The position numbers and the translations under genes were made by a program. The notes beneath the pieces were generated by a model. That model was not told the origin of the DNA. It saw only the letters and a program-made list of their open reading frames with translations, and did no database searches. Shown here one piece after another: positions 11,713 through 36,723 of a DNA stretch of 64,000 nt. Position 1 is the stretch's first letter. Every line of letters begins with the position of its first letter. The DNA comes from Escherichia coli (GTDB lineage: Bacteria; Pseudomonadota; Gammaproteobacteria; Enterobacterales; Enterobacteriaceae): assembly GCF_045037415.1 (NCBI RefSeq), contig NZ_CP173438.1; one strand, 5' to 3'.

Positions 11713-12006
11713 ATGAAAAAAATGTTGTTTTCTGCCGCTCTGGCAATGCTTATTACAGGATGTGCTCAACAGACGTTTACTGTTGGAAACAAACCTACAG
11801 CAGTAACACCAAAGGAAACCATCACCCATCATTTCTTCGTTTCGGGAATTGGGCAGAAGAAAACTGTCGATGCAGCAAAAATTTGTGGTGGTGCAGAAAA
11901 TGTTGTTAAAACAGAAACCCAGCAAACATTCGTAAATGGATTGCTCGGTTTTATTACTTTAGGCATTTATACTCCGCTGGAAGCGCGTGTGTATTGCTCA
12001 CAATAA
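11713..12006 (+). CDS. bor: Bor outer-membrane lipoprotein (serum-resistance, Iss family)
   Basis: MKKMLFSAALAMLITGCAQQTFTVGNKPTAVTPKETITHHFFVSGIGQKKTVDAAKICGGAENVVKTETQQTFVNGLLGFITLGIYTPLEARVYCSQ matches lambda Bor; lipobox ITGC. Confidence 0.9.
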   Translation: MKKMLFSAALAMLITGCAQQTFTVGNKPTAVTPKETITHHFFVSGIGQKKTVDAAKICGGAENVVKTETQQTFVNGLLGFITLGIYTPLEARVYCSQ

Positions 12007-22700: not shown

Positions 22701-23652
22701 CTGCAACATTATCGCTGCTAAGCTGTTCAGCCAAGGAAACGCCCGGGCGATAATTAAACTCAACACCAAAGGTTGTATCGTGAGTGTTGCTCTGTCCTTG
22801 CTTATGCTGTGCAGAAAACTTAATCAGAGGAACTGGTGTATAAGAAATTCCCCCAGTAACTGCGTAAGGGTTTTCCTGCAGGTTATCGCTTCCAAATAAC
22901 CCGACATTTTTACCATAATATTTTTCAAACTGAATAGATGCCCCTAATTGCGGATAAGCAGGTAGCCATCCTTCAGCAGAAAAATCCCAGCCATTTGCAG
23001 GTCTTTCCAGATAATCATCAATATCACGACTGTTCTTCCAGTCAGATAGACCAAAATAGGTATTTACACCAAGCCTGAAATAATCCCTCCAGTACTCAAC
23101 CCCAAAACCTGCACGAGAGTGACTACGACTTAAATCGTAATCATAGAAAACATTCGCACCCAACATTGCGTTATCAGGAGTGAAATGACGAATCCCCAAA
23201 CCAATATTGGTCTGATTTCGGTCATCAGTACGATGTAGTGATGTCTGACTGAATAACACATAATCCTGAGTATCCAGCCATGGATATAAAAAGTCGAATG
23301 ATGAATCCTTCAAGGAAAAAGAATCATCGACATTAAGCTTGATGCGCGCATTGCCATATTGTTGCAACCAGTCGACGACCTCTTTTGTCGCCTGAGTTGA
23401 TAAAGTATTTACAGCAAAACTACTTGCATTATTATTCGCCAGGCTCTGACCTGCACTTGCTGCAAATGAGGCCACTTTATTTGCATGCTCATCGCTGGCA
23501 TAAATTTGCGTAACATCTTTATTACCAGATGATGCAAAACTGTTTGCTGGGATCAAAGAAAGAGAAACTGGAGATAATATCTGGGTAACAATTACCGACC
23601 ATGTAATCGCGCCAGATGCAGTTTTTTTTAACTTTTTATTCACAGTGGTCAT
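19744..23652 (-). CDS. Intimin/invasin-family inverse autotransporter adhesin with multiple bacterial Ig-like (Big) domains
   Basis: 1302 aa; signal-peptide-like N-terminus; region ...LYPWLDTQDYVLFSQTSLHRTDDRNQTNIGLGIRHF...GFGVEYWRDYFRLGVNTYFG...ERPANGWDFSAEGWLPAYPQLGASIQFEKYYG...YDFVERNNNIVLEYKKK closely parallels the recalled intimin beta-barrel domain; then a long Thr/Ser/Val-rich repetitive passenger; AT-rich upstream region. Confidence 0.85.
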   Translation of the reverse strand: MTTVNKKLKKTASGAITWSVIVTQILSPVSLSLIPANSFASSGNKDVTQIYASDEHANKVASFAASAGQSLANNNASSFAVNTLSTQATKEVVDWLQQYGNARIKLNVDDSFSLKDSSFDFLYPWLDTQDYVLFSQTSLHRTDDRNQTNIGLGIRHFTPDNAMLGANVFYDYDLSRSHSRAGFGVEYWRDYFRLGVNTYFGLSDWKNSRDIDDYLERPANGWDFSAEGWLPAYPQLGASIQFEKYYGKNVGLFGSDNLQENPYAVTGGISYTPVPLIKFSAQHKQGQSNTHDTTFGVEFNYRPGVSLAEQLSSDNVAVMREVQNRRYDFVERNNNIVLEYKKKHALKISLPESVQGEGESIIPVTLTINNASGGIKSVQWNDSAFTAAGGKISGNGTSWQITLPAYKSEGVNSWNVGATVQDNRGNVSNYAVMNISVTDSGVSTADSSFTLDGDSSPTISADSQSTYPIVLSLKDSNGKALTGLADDIEMSVEFTADSNSARQRETVTAPSLGAVEEISAGVYRSVLTAGSQAGTVRVTAKVQGKTFTLNIKQAAITDSDVSTADSSFTLDGDSSPTISADSQSTYPIVLSLKDSNGKALTGLADDIEMSVEFTADSNSARQRETVTAPSLGAVEEISAGVYRSVLAAGSQAGTVRVTAKVQGKTFTLSIKQTATTEPDSEVSAVLTAAPAEQVVGYNINLQLAVKDSQGNAITGDNTLSFYALNQAEGVEFGTVTEKDGVYSATVTSKRAGKITIGVKSDSHDFSGVKKEITFIEDRQQVTFSQFEASQNNALADGKQRNMVTVSLADRFGNVVPGYAVTLSLPAGITQVGGEHAVSTDENGNAIFALISSTPGSYVITAHAGSQMSTELTVTFASNMTGASLSLTPESSSLISNIPANGKDAAVLDVQLTNTNASVNGQKIQLITSSEGLSVPTNIVTDSTGHVSVPLTTVKAGEYTVTARVTDGSHSVESGSVKLTFVPDVASAELNMSVSKQEIVADGSENATVNIQLVDANNNAFTGEVDLTITPSTGASLTSSNLQLDAHGQATTQFTASKSGQYTIQAEYVLDGKRITASQNIDAVTDVKGAVLEITSSASSAVVSDTNNLVFTLLLKSKSGEALSGRALNVKTSGPSKYGALVVDKTTVTTDENGQATVSVHGRTVGSYKLTATLNELGSDVSAVKSFSLYADDANGVLTLTKDPGYETNDGSPVGIYARFVDHFGNPLSGTVEFSAGSEDSPDSQRVKMEPATVTLHWTGNAASEFSTYESGYHWIKAKITNSKNTYEKTIRTYVVKLPEKDS
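21628..22350. repeat. Near-perfect tandem direct duplication (2 x 357 bp) inside the adhesin gene, encoding a duplicated 119-aa Ig-like domain
   Basis: gcttaatactgagagtaaatgtttttccctgaacttttgcagttacacg... recurs 357 bp later with a few substitutions; protein shows two almost identical blocks (...STADSSFTLDGDSSPTISADSQSTYPIVLSLKDSNGKALTGLADDIEMSVEFTADSNSARQRETVTAPSLGAVEEISAGVYRSVL...); plus-strand shadow ORFs 21904..22119 and 22261..22446 translate identically. Confidence 0.9.
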
Positions 23653-23901
23653 AGTTCAATCAACGTTATGAATATAATGAAAAAAATAACTGGTATGACA
23701 AGAGGCGCGAAATATACAGCTCGTTACAAAAAAATCAACTCAAAAATAAAATAAAATCTCTGCATAAACTTTATGGCTAAATGATTTCACAACAATGGAA
23801 GAAAAATTTTGTTGCTCACGCAATCAATCATTTCGGGCGTTACAACTAGTCCTAGATTATATTCGCTAGGTATACTTTATTTTTAAGCTAATACTTTAGC
23901 T

Positions 23902-24603
23902 CTATTTCATCGCTCCTTTCAGCCCGAACTTAGCTTTGATTTCTGCGATCTTCGCCAGAGCCTGTGCACGATTTAGAGGCCTACCGCCCATGACAGGAAG
24001 TTGTTTTACTGGTTCAGGTATAGCCTCACCACGGTTAATTCGCGCGGTCATACAGGCCAGTTCATCGGCAGCCTTGCGCCGTAATTCCGCGTCAGTCAAC
24101 GCATTGGCCCGCATGTTCTGATACAGGTTGGTAACCAGCCAGTAGTGCGCGTTTGATTTCCACGGATAAGACTCTGCATCCGGATACAGACCACGCTTCC
24201 GGCAATACTCGTAAACCATATCAACCAGCTCGCTGACGTTTGGCAGCCCGGCGGTAACGGATGCTTCTTCCCGGCACCATGCAACAAACTGCCCGGGTGA
24301 TGGCAGAAATGGTCTATTCTGCCGACGGGCAACACGCATTCCGTCGCTCACCTGCTCCATCGTGGTGATCCCGTTTTCCCGGAAAGCCAGAACCCACTGG
24401 CGGCGGATTTCGTTCAGTTCGTTCTGGTCACGATTAGCCAGGCTCGCCGGGAAAGTTGCCAGTAACTGGCTGAATACACCGTTGATTATCTGCGCTACCT
24501 GCTGTACCTGCGGCTTTTCGTCGTACTGTTCCGGCATGTTGTTGGCGATCCGACGCATCTGCTCACGGTCAAAGTTAATCATCTGTGCGGCGATGTTTTT
24601 CAT
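23902..24603 (-). CDS. P: Replication protein P (DnaB helicase loader)
   Basis: 233 aa, MKNIAAQMINFDREQMRRIANNMPEQYDEKPQVQQVAQIINGVFSQLLATFPASLANRDQNE... near-identical to lambda P. Confidence 0.95.
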   Translation of the reverse strand: MKNIAAQMINFDREQMRRIANNMPEQYDEKPQVQQVAQIINGVFSQLLATFPASLANRDQNELNEIRRQWVLAFRENGITTMEQVSDGMRVARRQNRPFLPSPGQFVAWCREEASVTAGLPNVSELVDMVYEYCRKRGLYPDAESYPWKSNAHYWLVTNLYQNMRANALTDAELRRKAADELACMTARINRGEAIPEPVKQLPVMGGRPLNRAQALAKIAEIKAKFGLKGAMK

Positions 24604-25529
24604 AGATCCACCCCGTAAATCCAGTCTGTGTTTGTCAGGTCGAGTTTTGGTTTGCTAGCTGTCACGCCTGCCTGTTGCTTGTTACGGTTGATTTCGAGTT
24701 GGGTCCACTTGTCGCGGAGTTTGGCCGGACTTAGCACGTTACCGGACCAGAAGTTGTCCTGGCATGCCCAGCGGAACAGCACGCACATGTCGCGGTGGTT
24801 ACGTCCGTCACGTTCACGCATCAGGCGGATATCGTTAGCCCACCCTGCAAAATTCGGTTTTCTGGCTGATGGCGCGATGGTCTTCACCATGTCAAACATC
24901 CACTCTGCGGCGGTCAGGTCTTCTGCTGTCCCCCACTTGCTGCCGCTCTGAATTGCAGCATCCGGTTTCACCACAGGAAGATCGTTTTCTGGTTGGTCAG
25001 AGGATTCGCCAGAATTCTCGGACGAAAAAGGTTTTATATTGTCTTTTGTTAGTTTGTCTTTTGTGTTTACCTGATTCGGGTAAACGCCTTTACCTGATTT
25101 GGGTAAACTTTTTTTACCTGATTCAGGTAAATTTACCTCTTTCAGGTAAACTTTATTTTTCTTACCTGATTCGGGTAATGTTGACCATTCACTGACCACA
25201 TTATTAATGCCGGTATTCCGCCCGCTCTGAATAAAAATCCCACGCTTTACCAGAACACTTTTTGCAGCAGAACACTTGTGCGGCAATATCCCGGTTAATT
25301 CGGAAAGTTGCTCGTTGCTAACCCAATCCAGTTTTTTATTAAAGCCATATGTTTTGCGCATGACAGCCAGAAAGACCAGAAGCTGGTGCTGTGTTAATCC
25401 GGCCAGCATCACAGCTTCCAGCAACTCATTTGCAATGCGCGTATAACCATCATCGAGATCTGCCACGCGCGGCTCCTTTTGTGCCGCATCCGGCACTGGA
25501 AAATTGAATATCTCAGCAGTGTTTGCCAT
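24600..25529 (-). CDS. O: Replication initiator O
   Basis: ORF 24600..25619; start placed at MANTAEIFNFPVPDAAQKEPRVADLDDGYTRIANELLEAV..., by analogy with lambda O (MTNTAKILNF...); ori iterons lie inside the gene; the C-terminal third resembles lambda O. Confidence 0.85.
   Translation of the reverse strand: MANTAEIFNFPVPDAAQKEPRVADLDDGYTRIANELLEAVMLAGLTQHQLLVFLAVMRKTYGFNKKLDWVSNEQLSELTGILPHKCSAAKSVLVKRGIFIQSGRNTGINNVVSEWSTLPESGKKNKVYLKEVNLPESGKKSLPKSGKGVYPNQVNTKDKLTKDNIKPFSSENSGESSDQPENDLPVVKPDAAIQSGSKWGTAEDLTAAEWMFDMVKTIAPSARKPNFAGWANDIRLMRERDGRNHRDMCVLFRWACQDNFWSGNVLSPAKLRDKWTQLEINRNKQQAGVTASKPKLDLTNTDWIYGVDL
25030..25179. other. Replication origin (ori): five roughly 17-bp iterons plus an adjacent AT-rich segment, inside O
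   Basis: Iterons tacctgattcgggtaaa / tacctgatttgggtaaa / tacctgattcaggtaaa / tacctctttcaggtaaa / tacctgattcgggtaat at 25068..25179; AT-rich gttttatattgtcttttgttagtttgtcttttgtgttt at 25030..25067; same layout as lambda ori. Confidence 0.8.
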
Positions 25530-25615
25530 AATTCCTCCCGCAATGAGTGTGTTACGATTTGCACCTGAAAGTCGGTTCTGTTCCAGCAGACCGGCTTTCG
25601 CCATTTCTGAACCTG

Positions 25616-26155
25616 TCATATCGCCCCCAGCATGGTAGTAACCATCGCCATCAATGGACCAGCCAGATCTGGGTCCACACGAAACATCGACACAATACCT
25701 TCACTAATTTCCTTCAGTTTCTGGTGGCGTGGTGCGTTGAGAATGACAGCCTGTTTTGCCTCACTGAGTTCCTTTTCCATTTCAGCCAACCTAGCCATGA
25801 AGCTATCCTGCTCAACCAGGTAACCGCGATATTCCAGCGGTAGTACCGCCAGAATTGCCGGGGTCAGTTCACGCACGTTATTTCGGTATTTTTCAGAATC
25901 GAATTTGTTATCGAGGAAGCGGAACAGCTTCTGGCGTGCACGGCTGACATCATCAGGGAAATCGATGGTGCCGCCGCCCTGCTCCAGATACTCATTCACA
26001 ATGAGTGTGGCAACGACATCCTGATTATCTACAGCCGACCAGGCGCGGACGGCATCACGGATTTTTTCGTGGCCTGGCACCTGTTTTGTTTGAGAACGAT
26101 TTATCACCGCAGTCGGGCTAAATCCGCTAGTCTGTTGGTATGTAAGTGGTTGCAT
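25616..26155 (-). CDS. YdaT-like protein in the cII position (Rac-type CII analogue / putative toxin-family domain)
   Basis: 179 aa between the Cro-like gene and O; segment ...LIVNEYLEQGGGTIDFPDD...RELTPAILAVLPLEYRGYL... resembles the recalled Rac YdaT pattern; assignment unverified. Confidence 0.5.
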   Translation of the reverse strand: MQPLTYQQTSGFSPTAVINRSQTKQVPGHEKIRDAVRAWSAVDNQDVVATLIVNEYLEQGGGTIDFPDDVSRARQKLFRFLDNKFDSEKYRNNVRELTPAILAVLPLEYRGYLVEQDSFMARLAEMEKELSEAKQAVILNAPRHQKLKEISEGIVSMFRVDPDLAGPLMAMVTTMLGAI

Positions 26156-26224
26156 AATTGACTCCTTTAGTTTGAATTGACTGTTAAGTTGATTGCTTAT
26201 TGTTAAAGAGCGTGAAATGGAAAT

Positions 26225-26455
26225 TTAAGCTGCGTTCTTTTCGGTGTGTGGAAACAACTTCGGAAGATCCGGGCGAATCTGGTATGCCTTCACTACTCCA
26301 CCAGTAGCCGTAACAATGCTGCCGACATGTTCAGGGGATACCTTTGCTTTGTTGTGAAGCCACTTATAGACGGCCTGCTGTGAAACTTCGCAAGCAGCGC
26401 CCAGTTTCTTTTGTGAACCAACGATATTGATCGCTGTTTTGATAGCTGGGTTCAT
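26225..26455 (-). CDS. Cro-like HTH regulator (YdaS/Cro family)
   Basis: 76 aa, divergent from the repressor gene; HTH-like segment GSQKKLGAACEVSQQAVYKWL; operator palindromes immediately upstream. Confidence 0.7.
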   Translation of the reverse strand: MNPAIKTAINIVGSQKKLGAACEVSQQAVYKWLHNKAKVSPEHVGSIVTATGGVVKAYQIRPDLPKLFPHTEKNAA

Positions 26456-26559
26456 AACAACCTCCGTGGTTAATTTGAATCAAGATTAAAACTATGGTTG
26501 TTTTTAGTCAACAACCATTTTCGTTTGATGGAATAAAACCTTGGTTGTACATTTGGACT
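26456..26559. promoter_or_regulatory. Right operator/promoter region (OR with divergent PR and PRM)
   Basis: Between divergent cro-like and repressor genes; 25-bp palindrome ATGGTTGTT-tttagtc-AACAACCAT at 26494..26518 and a further TGGTTGT half-site at 26541..26547; the repressor ATG (26560) has no Shine-Dalgarno sequence, consistent with a leaderless PRM transcript as in lambda. Confidence 0.6.
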
Positions 26560-27249
26560 ATGAAAACAACACTCTCAGAAAGACTTAAAGAAGCCAGATT
26601 AGCGCGAGGCCTTACACAAAAGGCGCTTGGGGATTTGGTCGGGGTTAGCCAGGCTGCTATTCAGAAAATCGAAACAGGGAAAGCTAATCAAACAACTAAA
26701 ATCGTGGAGATCGCGAACGCTTTGGGTGTGCGCGCAGAATGGTTATCTTCTGGCGTTGGAAATATGTCAGACAGTACAGTGCAACCAATACAATCAACTG
26801 TCAGCCATTCCAAATACTTCAAGATTGACGTTCTTGATATAGAAGTCAGTGCTGGGCCGGGAGTCATCAACCGTGAGTTTGTAGAAGTTCTACGCTCGGT
26901 TGAGTACTCGTTTGACGATGCTCGTCACATGTTCGATGGTAGGAAGGCGGAAAATATCCGCATCATTAACGTGCGTGGTGACAGCATGTCAGGAACGATC
27001 GAACCAGGTGATCTGCTGTTCGTTGATATCACAGTTAAATCTTTCGACGGTGATGGTATCTATGCGTTTCTGTACGACGACACAGCCCATGTAAAGCGCC
27101 TGCAAATGATGAAGGATAAGCTGCTGGTCATCTCTGATAACAAAAGCTACTCACCGTGGGACCCGATCGAGAAAGACGAGATGAACCGGGTGTTCATCTT
27201 CGGTAAGGTTATTGGGAGCATGCCGCAGACATATAGGAAGCATGGGTAG
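26560..27249 (+). CDS. CI-type prophage repressor (N-terminal XRE HTH, C-terminal S24/LexA-like peptidase domain)
   Basis: ORF 26494..27249; start at MKTTLSERLKEARLARGLTQKALGDLVGVSQAAIQKIETGK (HTH); C-terminal ...NVRGDSMSGTIEPGDLLFVD...HVKRL... has the Ser/Lys autocleavage dyad context. Confidence 0.85.
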   Translation: MKTTLSERLKEARLARGLTQKALGDLVGVSQAAIQKIETGKANQTTKIVEIANALGVRAEWLSSGVGNMSDSTVQPIQSTVSHSKYFKIDVLDIEVSAGPGVINREFVEVLRSVEYSFDDARHMFDGRKAENIRIINVRGDSMSGTIEPGDLLFVDITVKSFDGDGIYAFLYDDTAHVKRLQMMKDKLLVISDNKSYSPWDPIEKDEMNRVFIFGKVIGSMPQTYRKHG

Positions 27250-27370
27250 TACCAATTAAAAATTATCAACTGGGCATTGTGCTCATTCAGTAAAGAACTA
27301 ATTCCTATCTTTGCTCTAGGTAGTAATATTAAGCCACCGCAATAATATCTTTACCTAACGGCGTAAGAAT

Positions 27371-27400
27371 CCCGGTCACCGTGCCGGGTTTTCTTTTGCC
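27371..27400 (+). terminator. Candidate rho-independent terminator downstream of the repressor gene
   Basis: cccggtcaccgtgccggg hairpin followed by ttttctttt. Confidence 0.45.
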
Positions 27401-27489
27401 CTCCCCTCATCACACACACCGTTAAAAAAACCACCATAACCTCGCTTCAGTTATCGCTATGCGATTCAAGTCACAAAATAAATCCATCC

Positions 27490-27570
27490 TAAATACAACC
27501 AGTTATATCTAAAACAACCAATAAAACAACTTTTGTTGTTGACGATAAAACAACTATAGTTTTAAATAAG
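27490..27570 (+). promoter_or_regulatory. Left operator/promoter region (OL/pL-like)
   Basis: Clustered ACAAC/GTTGT half-sites, including the palindrome AACAACttttGTTGTT (27525..27540), sharing the half-site with OR; TTGACG -35-like hexamer at 27539..27544 with a TTAAAT -10 candidate 18 nt downstream; would drive the gam-bet-exo-xis-int strand. Confidence 0.45.
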
Positions 27571-27844
27571 TTCATCGCAACAACACAACGATACGGCAAC
27601 TACCTGATTCACCGTTGCGATGACCGCTTAGATCCGCAGTTTGAATTTCAGCAGGCTTCGGGGAGTGCGAGGGGTGAAACGGACGCGTGAACGTCGGTGT
27701 GACCAGCTGAAATTAACTCAACATTTCATACCTTAGTCGCTTCAACGAGGCGGCTTAGTTATGACAACCGGCGGCCATCCACCGCCTGAATACGCGCAGA
27801 AGTCTCTATATGTTCAGCAGCCCAGCTTACGGGCAGGAGTTTTT

Positions 27845-28051
27845 ATGGTTCATCAACATTACGGAACGCAGACCGTTAATCGCGGTGCGGTCATGCCAGG
27901 AATGCTGGTCAAACACAAAGATGGTACCTGGACTGCATCAGCTAATTTACGCGGACGGCTTTATCTGCATCGCGGCATCGAGCGCACTTATACCCGTGAT
28001 TTGCTCGTGGAAGTTTTTCTCGACGGACGCGGCAACGGCCTGAATCACTAA
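27845..28051 (+). CDS. Hypothetical small early-left-operon protein (kil/cIII position)
   Basis: ATG at 27845 preceded by caggag; 68 aa [68 protein letters not shown]; an alternative upstream ATG at 27761 lacks a Shine-Dalgarno sequence; no homolog recognised. Confidence 0.4.
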
Positions 28052-28126
28052 TCCCCTTTCCTGTTTACCTAATCAGCCCGGCATTTCGCAGGCGATATTT
28101 TCACAGCCATTTTCAGGAGTTCAGCC

Positions 28127-28423
28127 ATGAACGCTTATTACATTCAGGATCGTCTTGAGGCTCAAAGCTGGGCGCGTCACTACCAGCAGATCGCCCGTGA
28201 AGAGAAAGAGGCAGAACTGGCAGACGACATGGAAAAAGGTCTTCCACAGCACCTGTTTGAATCACTCTGCATCGATCATTTGCAACGCTGCGGGGCCAGC
28301 AAAAAAGCCATTACCCGTGCGTTTGATGACGATGTTGAGTTTCAGGAGCGCATGGCAGAACACATCCGGTACATGGTTGAAACCATTGCTCACCACCATG
28401 TTGATATTGATTCAGAGGTATAA
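28127..28423 (+). CDS. gam: Gam, RecBCD inhibitor (short GamS form)
   Basis: 98 aa, [98 protein letters not shown] matches lambda Gam. Confidence 0.9.
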
Positions 28424-28428
28424 AACGG

Positions 28429-29214
28429 ATGAGTACAGCACTCGCAACGCTGGCTGGGAAGCTGGCTGAACGTGTCGGCATGGATTCTGTCGACCCACAG
28501 GAACTGATCACCACTCTTCGTCAGACGGCATTTAAAGGTGATGCCAGCGATGCGCAGTTCATCGCATTGCTGATCGTCGCCAACCAGTACGGCCTTAATC
28601 CGTGGACGAAAGAAATTTACGCCTTCCCTGATAAGCAGAACGGCATCGTTCCGGTGGTGGGCGTTGATGGCTGGTCCCGCATCATCAATGAAAACCAGCA
28701 GTTTGATGGCATGGACTTTGAGCAGGACAATGAATCATGTACGTGCCGGATTTACCGCAAAGACCGCAATCATCCGATCTGCGTTACCGAATGGATGGAT
28801 GAATGCCGCCGCGAACCATTCAAAACTCGCGAAGGCAGAGAAATCACGGGGCCGTGGCAGTCGCATCCCAAACGGATGTTACGGCATAAAGCCATGATTC
28901 AGTGTGCCCGTCTGGCCTTCGGATTTGCTGGTATCTATGACAAGGATGAAGCCGAGCGCATTGTCGAAAATACTGCATACACTGCGGAACGTCAGCCGGA
29001 ACGCGACATCACTCCGGTTAACGATGAAACCATGCAGGAGATTAACACTCTGCTGATTGCCCTGGACAAAACATGGGATGACGACTTATTGCCGCTCTGT
29101 TCCCAGATATTTCGCCGCGACATTCGCGCATCGTCAGAACTGACACAGGCCGAAGCAGTGAAAGCTCTTGGATTCCTGAAACAGAAAGCCACTGAGCAGA
29201 AGGTGGCAGCATGA
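28429..29214 (+). CDS. bet: Bet (Red-beta) single-strand annealing recombinase
   Basis: 261 aa, [72 protein letters not shown]... essentially identical to lambda Bet. Confidence 0.95.
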
Positions 29215-29891
29215 CACCGGACATTATCCTGCAGCGTACCGGGATCGACGTGAGAGCTGTCGAACAGGGGGATGATGCATGGCACAAATTACGGCTCGGC
29301 GTCATCACCGCTTCAGAAGTTCACAACGTGATAGCAAAGCCCCGCTCAGGAAAGAAGTGGCCTGACATGAAAATGTCCTACTTCCACACCCTGCTGGCTG
29401 AGGTTTGCACCGGTGTGGCTCCGGAAGTTAATGCTAAGGCGCTGGCGTGGGGAAAACAGTACGAGAACGACGCCAGAACCCTGTTTGAATTCACTTCCGG
29501 CGTGAATGTTACTGAATCCCCGATCATCTATCGCGACGAAAGTATGCGCACCGCCTGCTCTCCCGATGGTTTATGCAGTGACGGCAATGGCCTTGAGCTG
29601 AAATGCCCGTTTACCTCCCGGGATTTCATGAAGTTCCGGCTCGGTGGTTTCGAGGCCATAAAGTCGGCTTACATGGCCCAGGTGCAGTACAGCATGTGGG
29701 TGACACGAAAAGATGCCTGGTACTTTGCCAACTATGACCCACGAATGAAGCGTGAAGGCCTGCATTATGTCGTGGTTGAGCGGGATGAAAAGTACATGGC
29801 GAGTTTTGACGAGATGGTGCCGGAGTTCATCGAAAAAATGGACGAAGCACTGGCTGAAATTGGTTTTGTATTTGGAGAGCAATGGCGATGA
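29211..29891 (+). CDS. exo: Lambda exonuclease (Red-alpha)
   Basis: 226 aa, [65 protein letters not shown]... essentially identical to lambda Exo. Confidence 0.95.
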
Positions 29892-30070
29892 CCCATCCTC
29901 ACGATAATATCCGGGTAGGCGCGATCACTTTCGTCTACTCCGTTACAAAGCGAGGCTGGGTATTTCACGGTCTTTCTGTTATCCGAAATCCGCTGAAAGC
30001 CCAGCGGCTGGCTGAGGAGATAAATAATAAACGGGGGGCGGTATGCACAAAGCATCTCCTGTTGAGTTAA
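29882..30070 (+). CDS. Small conserved lambda-region ORF downstream of exo (orf63-like)
   Basis: 62 aa, [62 protein letters not shown]; position and recalled similarity to the lambda exo-xis region ORFs. Confidence 0.55.
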
Positions 30071-30234
30071 GAACGAGTATTGATTTGGCACATAGCCTTG
30101 CTCAAATTGGAGTCAGGTTTGTGCCAATACCAGCAGAAACAGACGAAGAATTTCATACGTTAGCCACATCCCTTTCACAAAAGCTGGAAATGATGGTGGC
30201 GAAAGCAGAAGCAGATGAGAGAGACCAGGTATGA
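30043..30234 (+). CDS. Small conserved lambda-region ORF (orf61-like)
   Basis: 63 aa, [63 protein letters not shown]. Confidence 0.5.
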   Translation: MHKASPVELRTSIDLAHSLAQIGVRFVPIPAETDEEFHTLATSLSQKLEMMVAKAEADERDQV

Positions 30235-30310
30235 CAACCACTGAATGCATTTTTCTGGCAGCGGGCTTCATATTCTGTGTGCTTATGCTTGCCGACATGG
30301 GGCTTGTTCA

Positions 30311-30526
30311 GTGACACCTCAGCAAGAAAATGCCCTTCGCAGCATTGCCCGTCAGGCTAATTCTGAAATCAAAAAAGTCAGACAGCAGTTTCCGGATAAA
30401 AACGTCAATGACATTTGCCGTAGCGTACTGAAGAAGCACCGCGAAACGGTAACGCTGAAGGGATTCACACCGACTCATTTAAGCCTGGCAATCGGCATGT
30501 TAAACGGCGTCTTTAAGGAACGATGA
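30311..30526 (+). CDS. Small exo-xis region ORF (orf60a-like), possible GTG start
   Basis: In frame with ORF 30245..30526; (M)TPQQENALRSIARQANSEIKKVRQQFPDKNVNDICRSVLKKHRETVTLKGFTPTHLSLAIGMLNGVFKER; start uncertain. Confidence 0.4.
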   Translation: MTPQQENALRSIARQANSEIKKVRQQFPDKNVNDICRSVLKKHRETVTLKGFTPTHLSLAIGMLNGVFKER

Positions 30527-30624
30527 ACATGAAAAGCAAAATTATCAGGGAGCTACAGGCTCCTTTTTTATTGTTCGCATTCACCCTCAAGCGTATTAAC
30601 CAACAGTTCAGGGATTAATGAAAG

Positions 30625-30846
30625 ATGGCAGACATCATTGATTCAGCATCAGAAATAGAAGAATTACAGCGCAACACAGCAATAAAAATGCGCCGCCTGA
30701 ACTACCTGGCTGTATCTGCCACTCATTGTTGTGAGTGTGGCGATCCGATAGATGAACGAAGACGCCTGGCCGTTCAGGGTTGTCGGACTTGCGCCAGTTG
30801 CCAGCAAGATCTGGAGCTTATCCGCAAACAAAGGGGGATTAAGTGA
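30625..30846 (+). CDS. TraR/DksA-family C4 zinc-finger protein (lambda orf73-like)
   Basis: 73 aa with CCEC...CRTCASC four-cysteine motif typical of TraR/DksA-type zinc fingers. Confidence 0.6.
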   Translation: MADIIDSASEIEELQRNTAIKMRRLNYLAVSATHCCECGDPIDERRRLAVQGCRTCASCQQDLELIRKQRGIK

Positions 30847-31172
30847 TGGCTAACCTGCAACTTGCTGTTAAAAGTGAATACTTCGATGCCATGATTCGCG
30901 GAGAGAAAACGGAAGAGTATCGCTTGTGTAATGACTACTGGAATAAGCGAATTATGTTCCGGGAATATGACCGCCTGATTATCACAAAGGGATATCCGAA
31001 GCGCGACGATTCCAGTCGCAGAATTGATGTTCCGTATGACGGATATGAAGTGAAGACAATCACACATCCGCACTTTGGCGATAAACCGGTAAAGGTGTTC
31101 GCTATAAAGGTGAATATCAGCACTGAATATCAATCCGCACAACACAAGGTCAAGAATGTTCAGAGTGATTGA
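30843..31172 (+). CDS. Hypothetical protein (109 aa) in the exo-xis accessory region
   Basis: ORF with 4-nt overlap to the upstream gene (operon-like); MMANLQLAVKSEYFDAMIRGEKTEEYRLCNDYWNKRIMFREYDRLIITKGYPKRDD...; family not recognised. Confidence 0.45.
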   Translation: MMANLQLAVKSEYFDAMIRGEKTEEYRLCNDYWNKRIMFREYDRLIITKGYPKRDDSSRRIDVPYDGYEVKTITHPHFGDKPVKVFAIKVNISTEYQSAQHKVKNVQSD

Positions 31173-31395
31173 CCCTAACACCTGGTACGTCGACCACCAC
31201 GGCACTCCCTGCAAAATCCTGCGTTCTACCCACAACAAAGTTCACTACATCCGAAAAGGCAGAACATGTATCGCCAGCATGTTCCGCTTTAATCATGACT
31301 TTGAACCTGTGAATAAAGCTGATGCAGATCGGATAGCAGAAGAGATCGAAACGGCAGAACACATTAAGAAGTTACGTGACATGCGCAGGAAATAG
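31156..31395 (+). CDS. Hypothetical protein (79 aa) in the exo-xis accessory region
   Basis: ORF overlapping the end of the previous gene; MFRVIDPNTWYVDHHGTPCKILRSTHNKVHYIRKGRTCIASMFRFNHDFEPVNKADADRIAEEIETAEHIKKLRDMRRK. Confidence 0.4.
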   Translation: MFRVIDPNTWYVDHHGTPCKILRSTHNKVHYIRKGRTCIASMFRFNHDFEPVNKADADRIAEEIETAEHIKKLRDMRRK

Positions 31396-31534
31396 AAAAA
31401 TTGATAAATTCAATACTGCATTTCTCAGCATTAAATTTATCTCTATGACCAGTCAAGAGATGTACCTGCCATGAGCTTAATATCATGTCAGATATATCGG
31501 TCACAAACTCCCTCAGCAGCTAAGAGGAGGACAA

Positions 31535-31771
31535 ATGTCTCGACTAATCACTTTACAGGACTGGGCTAAAGAAGAATTTGGGGACTTAGCACCAAGTGAG
31601 CGAGTTCTGAAAAAATACGCGCAAGGGAAAATGATGGCCCCACCCGCTATAAAAGTTGGTCGCTACTGGATGATTGACCGAAATTCCCGTTTTGTAGGAA
31701 CGCTTGCAGAACCGCAACTCCCAATAAACGCAAACCCAAAACTCCAAAGGATAATCGCTGATGGCTGCTAG
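31535..31771 (+). CDS. xis: Excisionase (Xis)
   Basis: 78 aa immediately upstream of and overlapping int; preceded by gaggagg; MSRLITLQDWAKEEFGDLAPSERVLKKYAQGKMMAPPAIKVGRYWMIDRNSRF... resembles lambdoid excisionases. Confidence 0.75.
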   Translation: MSRLITLQDWAKEEFGDLAPSERVLKKYAQGKMMAPPAIKVGRYWMIDRNSRFVGTLAEPQLPINANPKLQRIIADGC

Positions 31772-32903
31772 ACCCCGATCTCACAAAATCTCTATACCCA
31801 ATTTATATTGCAAATTAGATAAGCGAACCGGAAAGGTATATTGGCAATACAAACATCCACTATCCGGTCGTTTTCATAGCTTAGGAACTGATGAGAATGA
31901 AGCAAAACAAGTTGCTACTGAAGCAAATACCATTATTGCTGAACAACGTACCAGACAAATATTAAGCGTCAATGAGCGTCTGGAAAGAATGAAAGGCAGG
32001 CGCTCAGACATTACGGTGACAGAATGGCTTGATAAATATATTTCTATCCAAGAGGACAGGCTGCAACATAATGAACTAAGACCCAACTCCTATCGGCAAA
32101 AAGGCAAACCCATTCGTCTTTTCCGTGAGCATTGTGGAATGCAACACCTCAAGGATATTACCGCACTTGATATTGCCGAAATAATTGATGCTGTAAAGGC
32201 TGAAGGTCATAACAGGATGGCGCAAGTCGTGAGAATGGTGTTGATCGACGTCTTCAAAGAAGCACAACACGCAGGACATGTTCCGCCAGGATTTAACCCA
32301 GCGCAGGCAACAAAACAACCGCGAAATCGAGTAAACCGCCAAAGATTGTCACTGCCCGAATGGCAGGCAATATTTGACAGCGTAAGCAGACGGCAGCCCT
32401 ATTTAAAATGCGGCATGCTACTTGCTCTTGTTACTGGACAACGTTTAGGCGATATCTGCAATTTGAAATTCTCTGATATATGGGACGACATGTTGCACAT
32501 TACTCAGGAAAAAACCGGTTCAAAACTTGCTATTCCGCTTAACCTGAAATGCGATGCTCTGAATATTACCCTTCGTGAAGTTATATCTCAGTGCAGGGAT
32601 GCTGTTGTTAGTAAATATCTGGTCCATTACCGTCACACTACCTCTCAAGCAAACAGAGGAGACCAGGTTTCTGCAAATACTCTGACAACGGCTTTTAAAA
32701 AGGCCCGGGAAAAATGTGGCATAAAATGGGAGCAAGGAACTGCGCCCACATTTCATGAGCAGCGATCTCTGTCAGAACGGTTATATCGGGAACAGGGTCT
32801 GGATACGCAAAAGTTGTTAGGCCATAAATCCAGAAAAATGACCGACCGATACAATGATGATCGTGGTAAAGACTGGATTATCGTAGATATCAAAACAGCA
32901 TAG
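31761..32903 (+). CDS. int: Tyrosine-family site-specific integrase (icd-targeting, phage 21/e14-like)
   Basis: 380 aa; C-terminal catalytic region (...HEQRSLSERLY...LGHKSRKMTDRY...) typical of lambda-family integrases; last prophage gene before icd. Confidence 0.9.
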   Translation: MAARPRSHKISIPNLYCKLDKRTGKVYWQYKHPLSGRFHSLGTDENEAKQVATEANTIIAEQRTRQILSVNERLERMKGRRSDITVTEWLDKYISIQEDRLQHNELRPNSYRQKGKPIRLFREHCGMQHLKDITALDIAEIIDAVKAEGHNRMAQVVRMVLIDVFKEAQHAGHVPPGFNPAQATKQPRNRVNRQRLSLPEWQAIFDSVSRRQPYLKCGMLLALVTGQRLGDICNLKFSDIWDDMLHITQEKTGSKLAIPLNLKCDALNITLREVISQCRDAVVSKYLVHYRHTTSQANRGDQVSANTLTTAFKKAREKCGIKWEQGTAPTFHEQRSLSERLYREQGLDTQKLLGHKSRKMTDRYNDDRGKDWIIVDIKTA

Positions 32904-32913
32904 AAAATAGCCA

Positions 32914-32951
32914 GTTTTGGGGAAGGGTTTTGGGGAAAGTTTTGGGGAAGA
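32914..32951 (+). repeat. Three tandem GTTTTGGGGAA(G/A)G repeats at the int/icd junction (candidate integrase arm-type sites)
   Basis: gttttggggaag / gttttggggaaag / gttttggggaag directly downstream of the int stop. Confidence 0.5.
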
Positions 32952-32961
32952 TTTTACATCA

Positions 32962-32993
32962 TCATAAAACAACGGGCGTGTTATACGCCCGTT
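32962..32993 (-). terminator. Rho-independent terminator of icd
   Basis: Minus strand: AACGGGCG-TATAACA-CGCCCGTT hairpin followed by GUUUUAU, 24 nt after the icd stop. Confidence 0.65.
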
Positions 32994-33016
32994 TCAATAT
33001 TTAACACATGTAGTGA

Positions 33017-34267
33017 TTACATATTCTTGATGATCGCGTCACCAAACTCTGAACATTTCAGCAGTTTAGCGCCTTCCATCAGACGTTCGAAGTCATAGGT
33101 TACGGTCTTGGCATTGATTGCGCCTTCCATACCTTTAACAATCAGGTCAGCCGCTTCAGTCCAACCCATATGGCGCAGCATCATCTCAGCGGAGAGAATA
33201 ATAGAGCCTGGGTTTACTTTGTCCTGTCCGGCATATTTCGGCGCAGTACCGTGGGTGGCTTCAAACAGGGCGCATTCGTCACCGATGTTTGCGCCAGGGG
33301 CGATACCGATACCACCAACCTGCGCTGCCAGGGCGTCAGAAATGTAGTCACCGTTCAGGTTCATACAGGCGATAACATCATATTCAGCCGGACGCAGCAG
33401 GATCTGTTGCAGGAATGCATCAGCAATCACGTCTTTAATGACGATCTCTTTGCCGGTATTCGGGTTTTTAACTTTCAGCCACGGGCCGCCGTCGATCAGT
33501 TCACCGCCAAATTCTTCACGCGCCAGTTGGTAGCCCCAGTCTTTAAACGCGCCTTCGGTGAACTTCATGATGTTGCCTTTGTGCACCAGGGTCACAGAGT
33601 CACGATCGTTAGCAATTGCGTATTCGATCGCTGCACGAACCAGACGTTTGGTGCCTTCTTCCGAACACGGCTTAATACCGATACCGCAATGTTCCGGGAA
33701 GCGAATTTTCTTCACGCCCATCTCTTCACGCAGGAATTTAATCACTTTCTCAGCGTCGGCAGAGTCTGCTTTCCATTCGATACCCGCATAAATGTCTTCC
33801 GAGTTTTCACGGAAGATAACCATATCGGTCAGTTCAGGGTGTTTAACCGGGCTTGGAGTGCCCTGATAGTAACGTACCGGACGCAGGCAGATGTAGAGAT
33901 CCAGTTCCTGGCGCAGGGCAACGTTCAGAGAGCGAATACCGCCACCAACCGGAGTGGTCAGCGGGCCTTTAATGGCAACGCGATATTCACGAATCAGATC
34001 AAGGGTTTCAGCAGGCAACCAGACGTCCTGACCATAAACCTGTGTGGATTTTTCACCGGTGTAAATTTCCATCCAGGAGATTTTACGCTCGCCTTTATAG
34101 GCTTTCTCGACTGCAGCGTCGACCACTTTCAGCATGGCTGGGGTTACATCTACACCGATTCCATCACCTTCAATGTAAGGGATAATCGGATTTTCAGGAA
34201 CGTTGAGTTTGCCGTTTTGCAGGGTGATCTTCTTGCCTTGTGCCGGAACAACTACTTTACTTTCCAT
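33017..34267 (-). CDS. icd: NADP-dependent isocitrate dehydrogenase
   Basis: 416 aa, [73 protein letters not shown]... matches E. coli Icd; known integration target of phage 21/e14-type integrases. Confidence 0.97.
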
Positions 34268-34438
34268 TCACCTCTCCTTCGAGCGCTACTGGTTTGCTCG
34301 TCTGCCACCACGTTGCATATGCGTTTGCGTCCTGCGATACGGATGCTTTAGAGCAATTTTTTGTTAATGATTTGTAATTAGCTTGTCAATACTACCCTAT
34401 TGTTTGCCGTCATGAAAGATGCGCGTTATTAGGCTATA

Positions 34439-35092
34439 ATGCGGCAATTCATAATCTCTGAAAATACCATGCAAAAAACTTCTTTTAGAAATCACCAGGT
34501 TAAGCGATTCAGCTCGCAACGTTCTACCAGGCGTAAACCTGACAACCAGCCCACGCGTGTGATCCTGTTCAATAAACCCTACGATGTTCTTCCGCAGTTC
34601 ACCGATGAAGCCGGACGCAAAACATTAAAAGAATTCATCCCGGTTCAGGGGGTGTATGCGGCAGGTCGTCTCGACCGCGACAGCGAAGGGTTACTGGTGC
34701 TGACCAATAACGGCGCGTTGCAGGCGCGTTTAACCCAGCCGGGTAAACGCACCGGAAAAATCTATTATGTGCAGGTGGAAGGTATTCCCACACAAGACGC
34801 ACTTGAAGCCTTGCGCAATGGCGTAACCTTAAATGATGGCCCTACCCTGCCCGCAGGCGCGGAGCTGGTTGAAGAACCCGCGTGGTTATGGCCGCGGAAT
34901 CCACCAATTCGTGAGCGCAAAAGTATTCCCACCAGCTGGCTGAAGATCACCTTATATGAAGGACGTAATCGCCAGGTGCGCCGCATGACCGCCCATGTTG
35001 GTTTCCCCACGCTGCGACTGATTCGCTATGCGATGGGGGATTACTCTTTGGATAATCTTGCCAATGGCGAATGGCGAGACGCGACAGATTAA
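34439..35092 (+). CDS. rluE: 23S rRNA pseudouridine(2457) synthase
   Basis: 217 aa matching E. coli RluE; conserved K-12 synteny. Confidence 0.9.
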
Positions 35093-35101
35093 GGATGCAA
35101 A

Positions 35102-36723
<1,622 letters not shown>

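Follow-up and report, generated by a model that had tools for sequence, protein, structure and literature searches.

The window analysed here is a stretch of 64,000 nucleotides of Escherichia coli DNA (contig NZ_CP173438.1), and positions refer to it unless another sequence is named. Two genes on the plus strand precede icd, which lies on the minus strand. The first of them, xis (31535-31771, + strand), overlaps the start of int and encodes an excisionase of 78 amino acids, which matches the Pfam family Exc (PF07825, E = 6.7e-6) and is annotated as an excisionase in phage 21 as well as in the lysogens. The second, int (31761-32903, + strand), encodes a phage 21-type tyrosine integrase of 380 amino acids, 377 of which are identical to phage 21 Int. 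The stop codon of int is followed by three tandem copies of a short repeat, by the intrinsic terminator of icd and by icd itself (33017-34267, - strand), an intact open reading frame for 416 amino acids. The preliminary description of this stretch had arranged int, the triple repeat, the terminator hairpin and icd in the same manner, and every element was found where it had been placed.

Int carries an N-terminal arm-DNA-binding domain (Arm-DNA-bind_1, PF09003, residues 1-71, E = 1.8e-28) and a catalytic domain (Phage_integrase, PF00589, residues 200-367, E = 8.9e-24). The former, the arm-DNA-binding domain of lambda, is present at the N-terminus of e14 IntE as well. With an arm-binding domain, a catalytic domain and an adjoining excisionase gene, the protein shows the features of a lambda-type heterobivalent integrase. 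An e14-type integration module was considered and rejected, since Int is only 60% identical to IntE and the repeats contain TTTTGGGGAA, not TTTTGATAAC.

The terminator of icd (32961-32993, - strand) consists of a stem-loop at 32971-32993, as expected from the preliminary description, and a T-rich tail extending to about 32961. Its stem has nine pairs, six of them G-C, the tail reads GTTTTATGAT, and the fold reaches a z-score of -2.9. The terminator is also annotated in phage 21, and the hairpin is kept in the native attB too. An Rfam search of positions 31000-34600 yielded only sub-threshold matches (tpke11, 20.8 bits against a gathering score of 43).

Direct comparison with phage 21 revealed 98% identity over positions 30000-33180, with the homology ending at 33180 within icd. 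Megablast against phage records retrieved phage 21 (M61865.1, OL657228.1) and about 25 other lambdoid phages with 98-99% identity, and all of these matches end at window positions 33175-33180 (query 1676-1681). The bacterial part of icd, its 5' 1087 nt (33181-34267, - strand), has no homology in phage 21. Integration into the 3' end of icd by an integrase of the 21/e14 type, as had been proposed before, is borne out by this end point and by the 99% identity of Int to that of phage 21. The record of the complete phage 21 genome (OL657228.1) annotates the terminator, a 165-bp 'ICDH-like' pseudogene, and a misc_feature reading 'integration site attP consists of 3 subsites P1P2P3; consensus YYTTCCCCAAAA'.

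The triple repeat comprises three exact copies of GTTTTGGGGAA at 32914-32924, 32927-32937 and 32939-32949, the first of which begins ten bases past the int stop codon. No other match to GTTTTGGGGAA with fewer than two mismatches is present in the 64 kb window, and Tandem Repeats Finder describes the block with a period of 13, 3.4 copies and a score of 65. Read as 12-mers, the copies are GTTTTGGGGAAG, GTTTTGGGGAAA and GTTTTGGGGAAG, that is, candidate P' arm repeat 1 (32914-32925, + strand), the farthest from the core, repeat 2 (32927-32938, + strand) and repeat 3 (32939-32950, + strand), about 220 bp from the core. All three lie inside the attP-subsite feature of OL657228.1 and are identical in phages 21, 4A7 and PhiR63_2, despite differences between these phages elsewhere in the same stretch. 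The P arm carries a fourth exact copy of TTTTGGGGAA in the same orientation, at a distance of about 119 bp from the core, both in phage 21 (L001 3301-3310) and in attR (L004 19702-19713); in the lysogen it thus sits at the distal end of the prophage. It is the only P-arm copy detected. From the first to the last repeat the phage 21 sequence spans 397 bp (L001 2915-3311). The minimal attP of phage 21, reportedly defined by Wang et al. in 1997, is said to measure 366-418 bp and to reach the outermost dodecamers, which fits this span. A literature search for phage 21 together with icd and attP or arm-type sites found no description of arm sites.

The e14 element of K-12 displays the same geometry with other letters. 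Its icd terminator is directly followed by three tandem (G/T)TTATCAAAA repeats (L006 1443-1476) that start about 222 bp from the core, whereas a fourth (16286-16295) is placed near the distal core, on the opposite arm and about 119 bp away. Both the number and the spacing are thus retained while the repeat sequence has changed along with the integrase, which supports a role as arm-type sites; a difference of this kind between e14 and the 21 type would be expected if repeat sequence and integrase specificity change together. According to this, the three GTTTTGGGGAA(G/A) repeats are most likely P' arm-type sites for the N-terminal arm-binding domain of Int. That Int physically binds them we infer from their position, their repetition, the annotation of the phage record and the e14 parallel. 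The earlier proposal of candidate arm-type sites thereby gains from three sides, as the same repeats are annotated as attP subsites in phage 21, the opposite arm carries a fourth copy, and a set with another sequence occupies the corresponding positions in e14.

The repeats could also be real and phage-borne and yet serve a different purpose than Int docking, either by binding another factor (Xis, Fis or a host protein) or, without any function, as a product of replication slippage downstream of int. Tandem Xis sites are indeed known from lambda attP, and a scan for the IHF consensus with up to 1 mismatch found nothing between core and repeats in the 220-bp P' arm of the window, which counts against the arm-site reading, as does the single P-arm copy, although a consensus scan cannot exclude binding. 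In phage 21 (L001 3269-3281) and in e14 (L006 16315-16327), the stretch that separates the P-arm repeat from the core has an exact match to this consensus (WATCAANNNNTTR); here, too, the scan neither proves nor excludes binding. However, the Xis sites of lambda are on the P arm and do not adjoin int, and slippage would not yield the number and spacing kept in e14 with a sequence changed alongside the integrase. Furthermore, the invariance of the repeats in phages 21, 4A7 and PhiR63_2 within an otherwise variable stretch, the exact fourth copy on the other arm and the arm-binding domain in both integrases all speak against a function other than Int docking. We consider such another function quite unlikely.

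The G-rich composition of the block allows for two further readings. Four G runs start at 32919, 32925, 32932 and 32944, and ViennaRNA with quadruplexes allowed places a three-layer quadruplex in the minimum-energy fold (-8.9 kcal/mol, compared to -5.9 kcal/mol without). A quadruplex on the int-sense strand, in the 3' untranslated region of int or in a displaced DNA strand, might thus have a second role besides Int docking, either in adjusting int expression or in folding the P' arm, which is unusually long with its 220 bp; we give this second role only a slim chance. Still less probable is a quadruplex of RNA or DNA in the 3' untranslated region of int by which the block would modulate int expression instead of, or besides, protein binding. 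The fold is a thermodynamic prediction with a last loop of 8 nt, and the equivalent e14 repeats (TTTTGATAA) lack G runs. A quadruplex is therefore not a conserved property of this architecture, and we gave this reading low weight.

[quoted passage not shown] The distal junction was read from two collinear genomes, strains 21515 and THO-003. Strain 21515 matches window positions 17000-36000 at 100% in one piece. In both genomes about 17 kb of further prophage sequence lie beyond window position 1, comprising tail genes and sitABCD and ending with a 168-bp icd fragment, annotated as an incomplete pseudogene, which adjoins ymgL. The two genomes are identical across this junction, and the prophage measures about 50.1 kb from core to core. 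THO-003 contains one more unit of a 357-bp repeat, by which its downstream coordinates are shifted by 357 bp; because of this difference 21515 was used as the closest match. Strain SK1144 was rejected as a collinear reference, as its prophage is mosaic relative to the window. The phage D2 record OM475427.1 (L009, 'partial genome') was likewise discarded as a source of attP: it has Ns in the repeat block and runs into bacterial icd past the core, and it appears, judged from these features, to be a prophage-derived sequence and not a packaged attP.

The attB rebuilt from the left side of attR and the window from 33181 onward matches about 25 prophage-free genomes at 100% over 1184 bp in one piece. 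In these empty-site genomes, which include O25b:H4-ST131 strains, icd directly adjoins ymgL.

When attL (window), attP (phage 21) and attR are aligned together, the flanks prove to be exchanged at one point, as expected: the left flank of attL is that of attP, and so is the right flank of attR. The three sequences share a block of about 217 bp comprising the icd 3' end and the terminator. This attP/attB homology block (32964-33180), which flanks the prophage as a direct repeat, is 94.5% identical between attL and the distal copy in attR (L004 19366-19583). Phage and host sequences differ at 33170, and the phage homology ends at 33180/33181, which places the exchange within TGGCGCAGCA. This common core of 10 bp (33171-33180), reading TGGCGCAGCA on the plus strand and TGCTGCGCCA in icd sense, is identical in attL, attR, attP and attB, and the 10-mer is the same in six of six att versions examined, including both K-12 copies; its delimitation assumes that no gene conversion has occurred at 33170 since integration. 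The preliminary description had held that the core cannot be delimited because the other prophage end is outside the window. This is correct for the window alone, but the outside genomes narrow the core down to these 10 bp. The integrase family typically has an overlap region of 7 bp, and an overlap of this size would fit within the core. Inspection by eye for core-type inverted repeats around the core gave weak symmetry, differing between attB and attP, and for this reason we do not propose a 7-bp overlap region.

Phage origin of the icd 3' end becomes visible when icd is compared with a prophage-free allele. In a comparison of the last 1064 nt of icd, the window and the prophage-free ST131 strain 2822 disagree only at 33170, 33152, 33149 and 33110. 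All four differences are synonymous and lie within the phage segment, that is, in the phage-derived 3' coding end of icd (33017-33170, - strand; the last 51 codons and the stop codon), with none in the 900 nt upstream of this segment (Fisher p = 5.5e-4), and thus none in the 884 nt compared above the core. The 3' untranslated stretch holds seven further differences between the window and the empty-site allele. At 33170 and 33110 the window allele is common to phages 21, 4A7 and PhiR63_2, whereas at 33152 and 33149 it occurs in 4A7 only, phages 21 and PhiR63_2 having the attB allele there. The free phage 4A7 thus agrees with the window at all four sites, and also in the 3' untranslated differences, whereas attR carries the attB allele at all four. 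The comparison indicates that the last 164 nt of icd and the terminator come from the phage, and that this origin is visible only in synonymous and 3'-untranslated nucleotides. The earlier claim that such phages bring a replacement icd 3' segment and leave the gene intact agrees with the continuous 416-codon frame and with the contiguity of the segment in free phages.

The encoded protein, by comparison, carries no information on this origin. Over its last 53 residues, Icd is identical between the window, phage 21, the displaced native fragment and the empty-site allele, and the lysogens and the empty-site strain have the Icd protein accession WP_000444487.1 in common. As all versions other than e14 encode the same peptide, an amino-acid comparison is uninformative on phage origin. 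The preliminary description had given the Icd C-terminus correctly, and likewise that of K-12 (D398, E414), from which the window differs only at residues 398 (E instead of D) and 414 (K instead of E). It had taken this difference as fitting a phage-derived end in the window; this argument does not hold, since the native, phage 21 and window C-termini are identical and the K-12 variant comes from e14. In K-12, e14 is annotated from 1196209, inside icd, and the icd 3' end is the e14-borne copy. A passage in PMC6379469, which cites Hill et al. 1989, associates an aspartate/glutamate replacement with e14. The C-terminus of the K-12 reference Icd (D398, E414) is accordingly the e14 version and not the ancestral one.

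A prophage that merely adjoins icd and leaves the native chromosomal allele at the 3' end of the gene would be in line with the encoded C-terminus, which is identical to the native one. This reading retains practically no probability and is already refuted by the three-way alignment, the rebuilt attB and the allele comparisons: the 164-nt segment, terminator and repeats are contiguous in phage 21 and other free phages, all differences from the empty-site allele, four of them synonymous and seven 3'-untranslated, are concentrated in the phage segment, and the distal end holds the displaced native copy. An icd 3' end identical to prophage-free alleles and the lack of a duplicated icd fragment at the other prophage end had been named in advance as grounds for giving up a phage-derived end. 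Neither applies, as the 3' end differs from the prophage-free allele and the collinear genomes carry the duplicated fragment at the distal end.

Taken together, we consider it very probable that the region represents the attachment junction on the int side, equivalent to lambda attL (B-O-P'), of an approximately 50-kb lambdoid prophage which carries a phage 21 integration module and resides in the 3' end of icd of an ST131-like E. coli, with the repeats most likely being P' arm-type sites. The proposed course of integration starts from a phage attP that would hold a copy of the last 164 nt of icd together with the icd terminator. Strand exchange by Int within the 10-bp core TGGCGCAGCA, at the upstream edge of the icd copy, would then join the 5' part of icd from the bacterium (33181-34267) in one reading frame with the 3' end from the phage, followed by the phage terminator. 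What remains of the native icd 3' end would persist as a pseudogene at the distal end of the prophage, beyond the limits of the window, and the encoded Icd protein would remain unchanged.

The structure of this junction is already known and widespread. Among 5426 genomes, 1630 contain the 21-type int-icd junction, while 2904 show the uninterrupted icd arrangement. What is added here is the verification of the junction, the delimitation of the crossover to 10 bp for this lineage and the correction of the amino-acid argument. For annotation, the prophage boundary belongs at 33171-33180 rather than at the stop codon of icd. In this strain, and likely also in about 30% of complete E. coli genomes, phage DNA makes up the terminator and the final 164 nt of icd. 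The locus neatly illustrates how insertion within a gene of an essential pathway can be harmless when the phage supplies its own gene end and terminator.

Several features of the prophage lie apart from the junction. Its cargo includes iss, encoding a serum survival lipoprotein, in the lysis region (11713-12006), and sitABCD for iron/manganese uptake near the distal end, outside the window (L004 21501-24950). An inverse autotransporter gene contains two copies of the 357-bp tandem repeat (21616-22272), which are 95% identical. Between this gene and an alpha/beta hydrolase gene, at about 17150-19700, the IS66-family element ISEc23 (tnpA, tnpB, transposase) is inserted, which is absent from this place in SK1144.

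The prophage of the window is a known island of extraintestinal pathogenic E. coli (ExPEC). PAI-EC14142-icd of ST131 has a Phi21-type integrase directly downstream of icd (PMC9686529). PAI-536-icd and PAI-EC14142-icd are prophage-like islands of about 46-50 kb at icd with a Phi21-type integrase, sitABCD and iss (PMC9686529). There is no difference of substance between the window and this icd island, of which the window shows a variant with the ISEc23 insertion and another repeat number in the autotransporter gene.

Phage 21 (M61865.1, OL657228.1) shares with the window the three dodecamers, the terminator, the 164-165 nt copy of the icd 3' end, the end point of homology and the fourth repeat on the P arm, besides the nearly identical integrase. 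The rest of the prophage is a different mosaic, with sitABCD, iss and the inverse autotransporter gene. The phage-borne icd segment of the window differs from phage 21 at 9 of 164 positions and is closer to phage 4A7, with two differences. Among the differences from phage 21 is a full switch of a serine codon (TCA versus AGC) at 33050-33053 with a neighbouring synonymous change (TGT TCA versus TGC AGC). In addition, the phage-borne copy in the window is identical to the host allele from segment position 72 onward. Both observations, taken from the alignment, hint at past recombination between phage and host copies.

The e14 element (intE, icd/icdC) also integrates at the attB core TGCTGCGCCA of icd and likewise replaces the 3' end of the gene. 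Its copy changes two Icd residues (E398D and K414E), whereas the copy in the window changes none, and in icd-sense orientation its repeat reads GTTATCAAAA compared to TTCCCCAAAA of the 21 type. The int gene of e14 does not adjoin the icd junction because ymfD, ymfE and lit lie between. Just past the third e14 repeat (L006 1476-1500), GTTTTGGGGTAG is found, which has one mismatch to the 21-type dodecamer and the opposite orientation relative to icd; this resemblance may be due to chance. The icdC fragment of K-12 (L006 16414-16578), compared with window positions 32964-33180, has all four phage-type alleles and a near-identical 3' untranslated stretch, with 6 + 2 differences from the window versus 10 + 6 from the native ST131 allele. 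This pattern suggests that an earlier 21-like phage had left the icd end which the K-12 lineage possessed before e14.

Lambda has three arm-type sites in tandem, P'1-P'2-P'3, between the core and the int stop codon. The three tandem candidate arm-type repeats of the window hold the same position. As in lambda attP, the 21-type arrangement combines a heterobivalent Int carrying PF09003 and xis upstream of int with at least one further site on the other arm. A gene fragment and a terminator lengthen the P' arm to about 220-265 bp, compared to about 80 bp in lambda. Further differences from lambda are the location of the target within a protein-coding gene, an unrelated repeat sequence, and one P-arm copy found where lambda has two.
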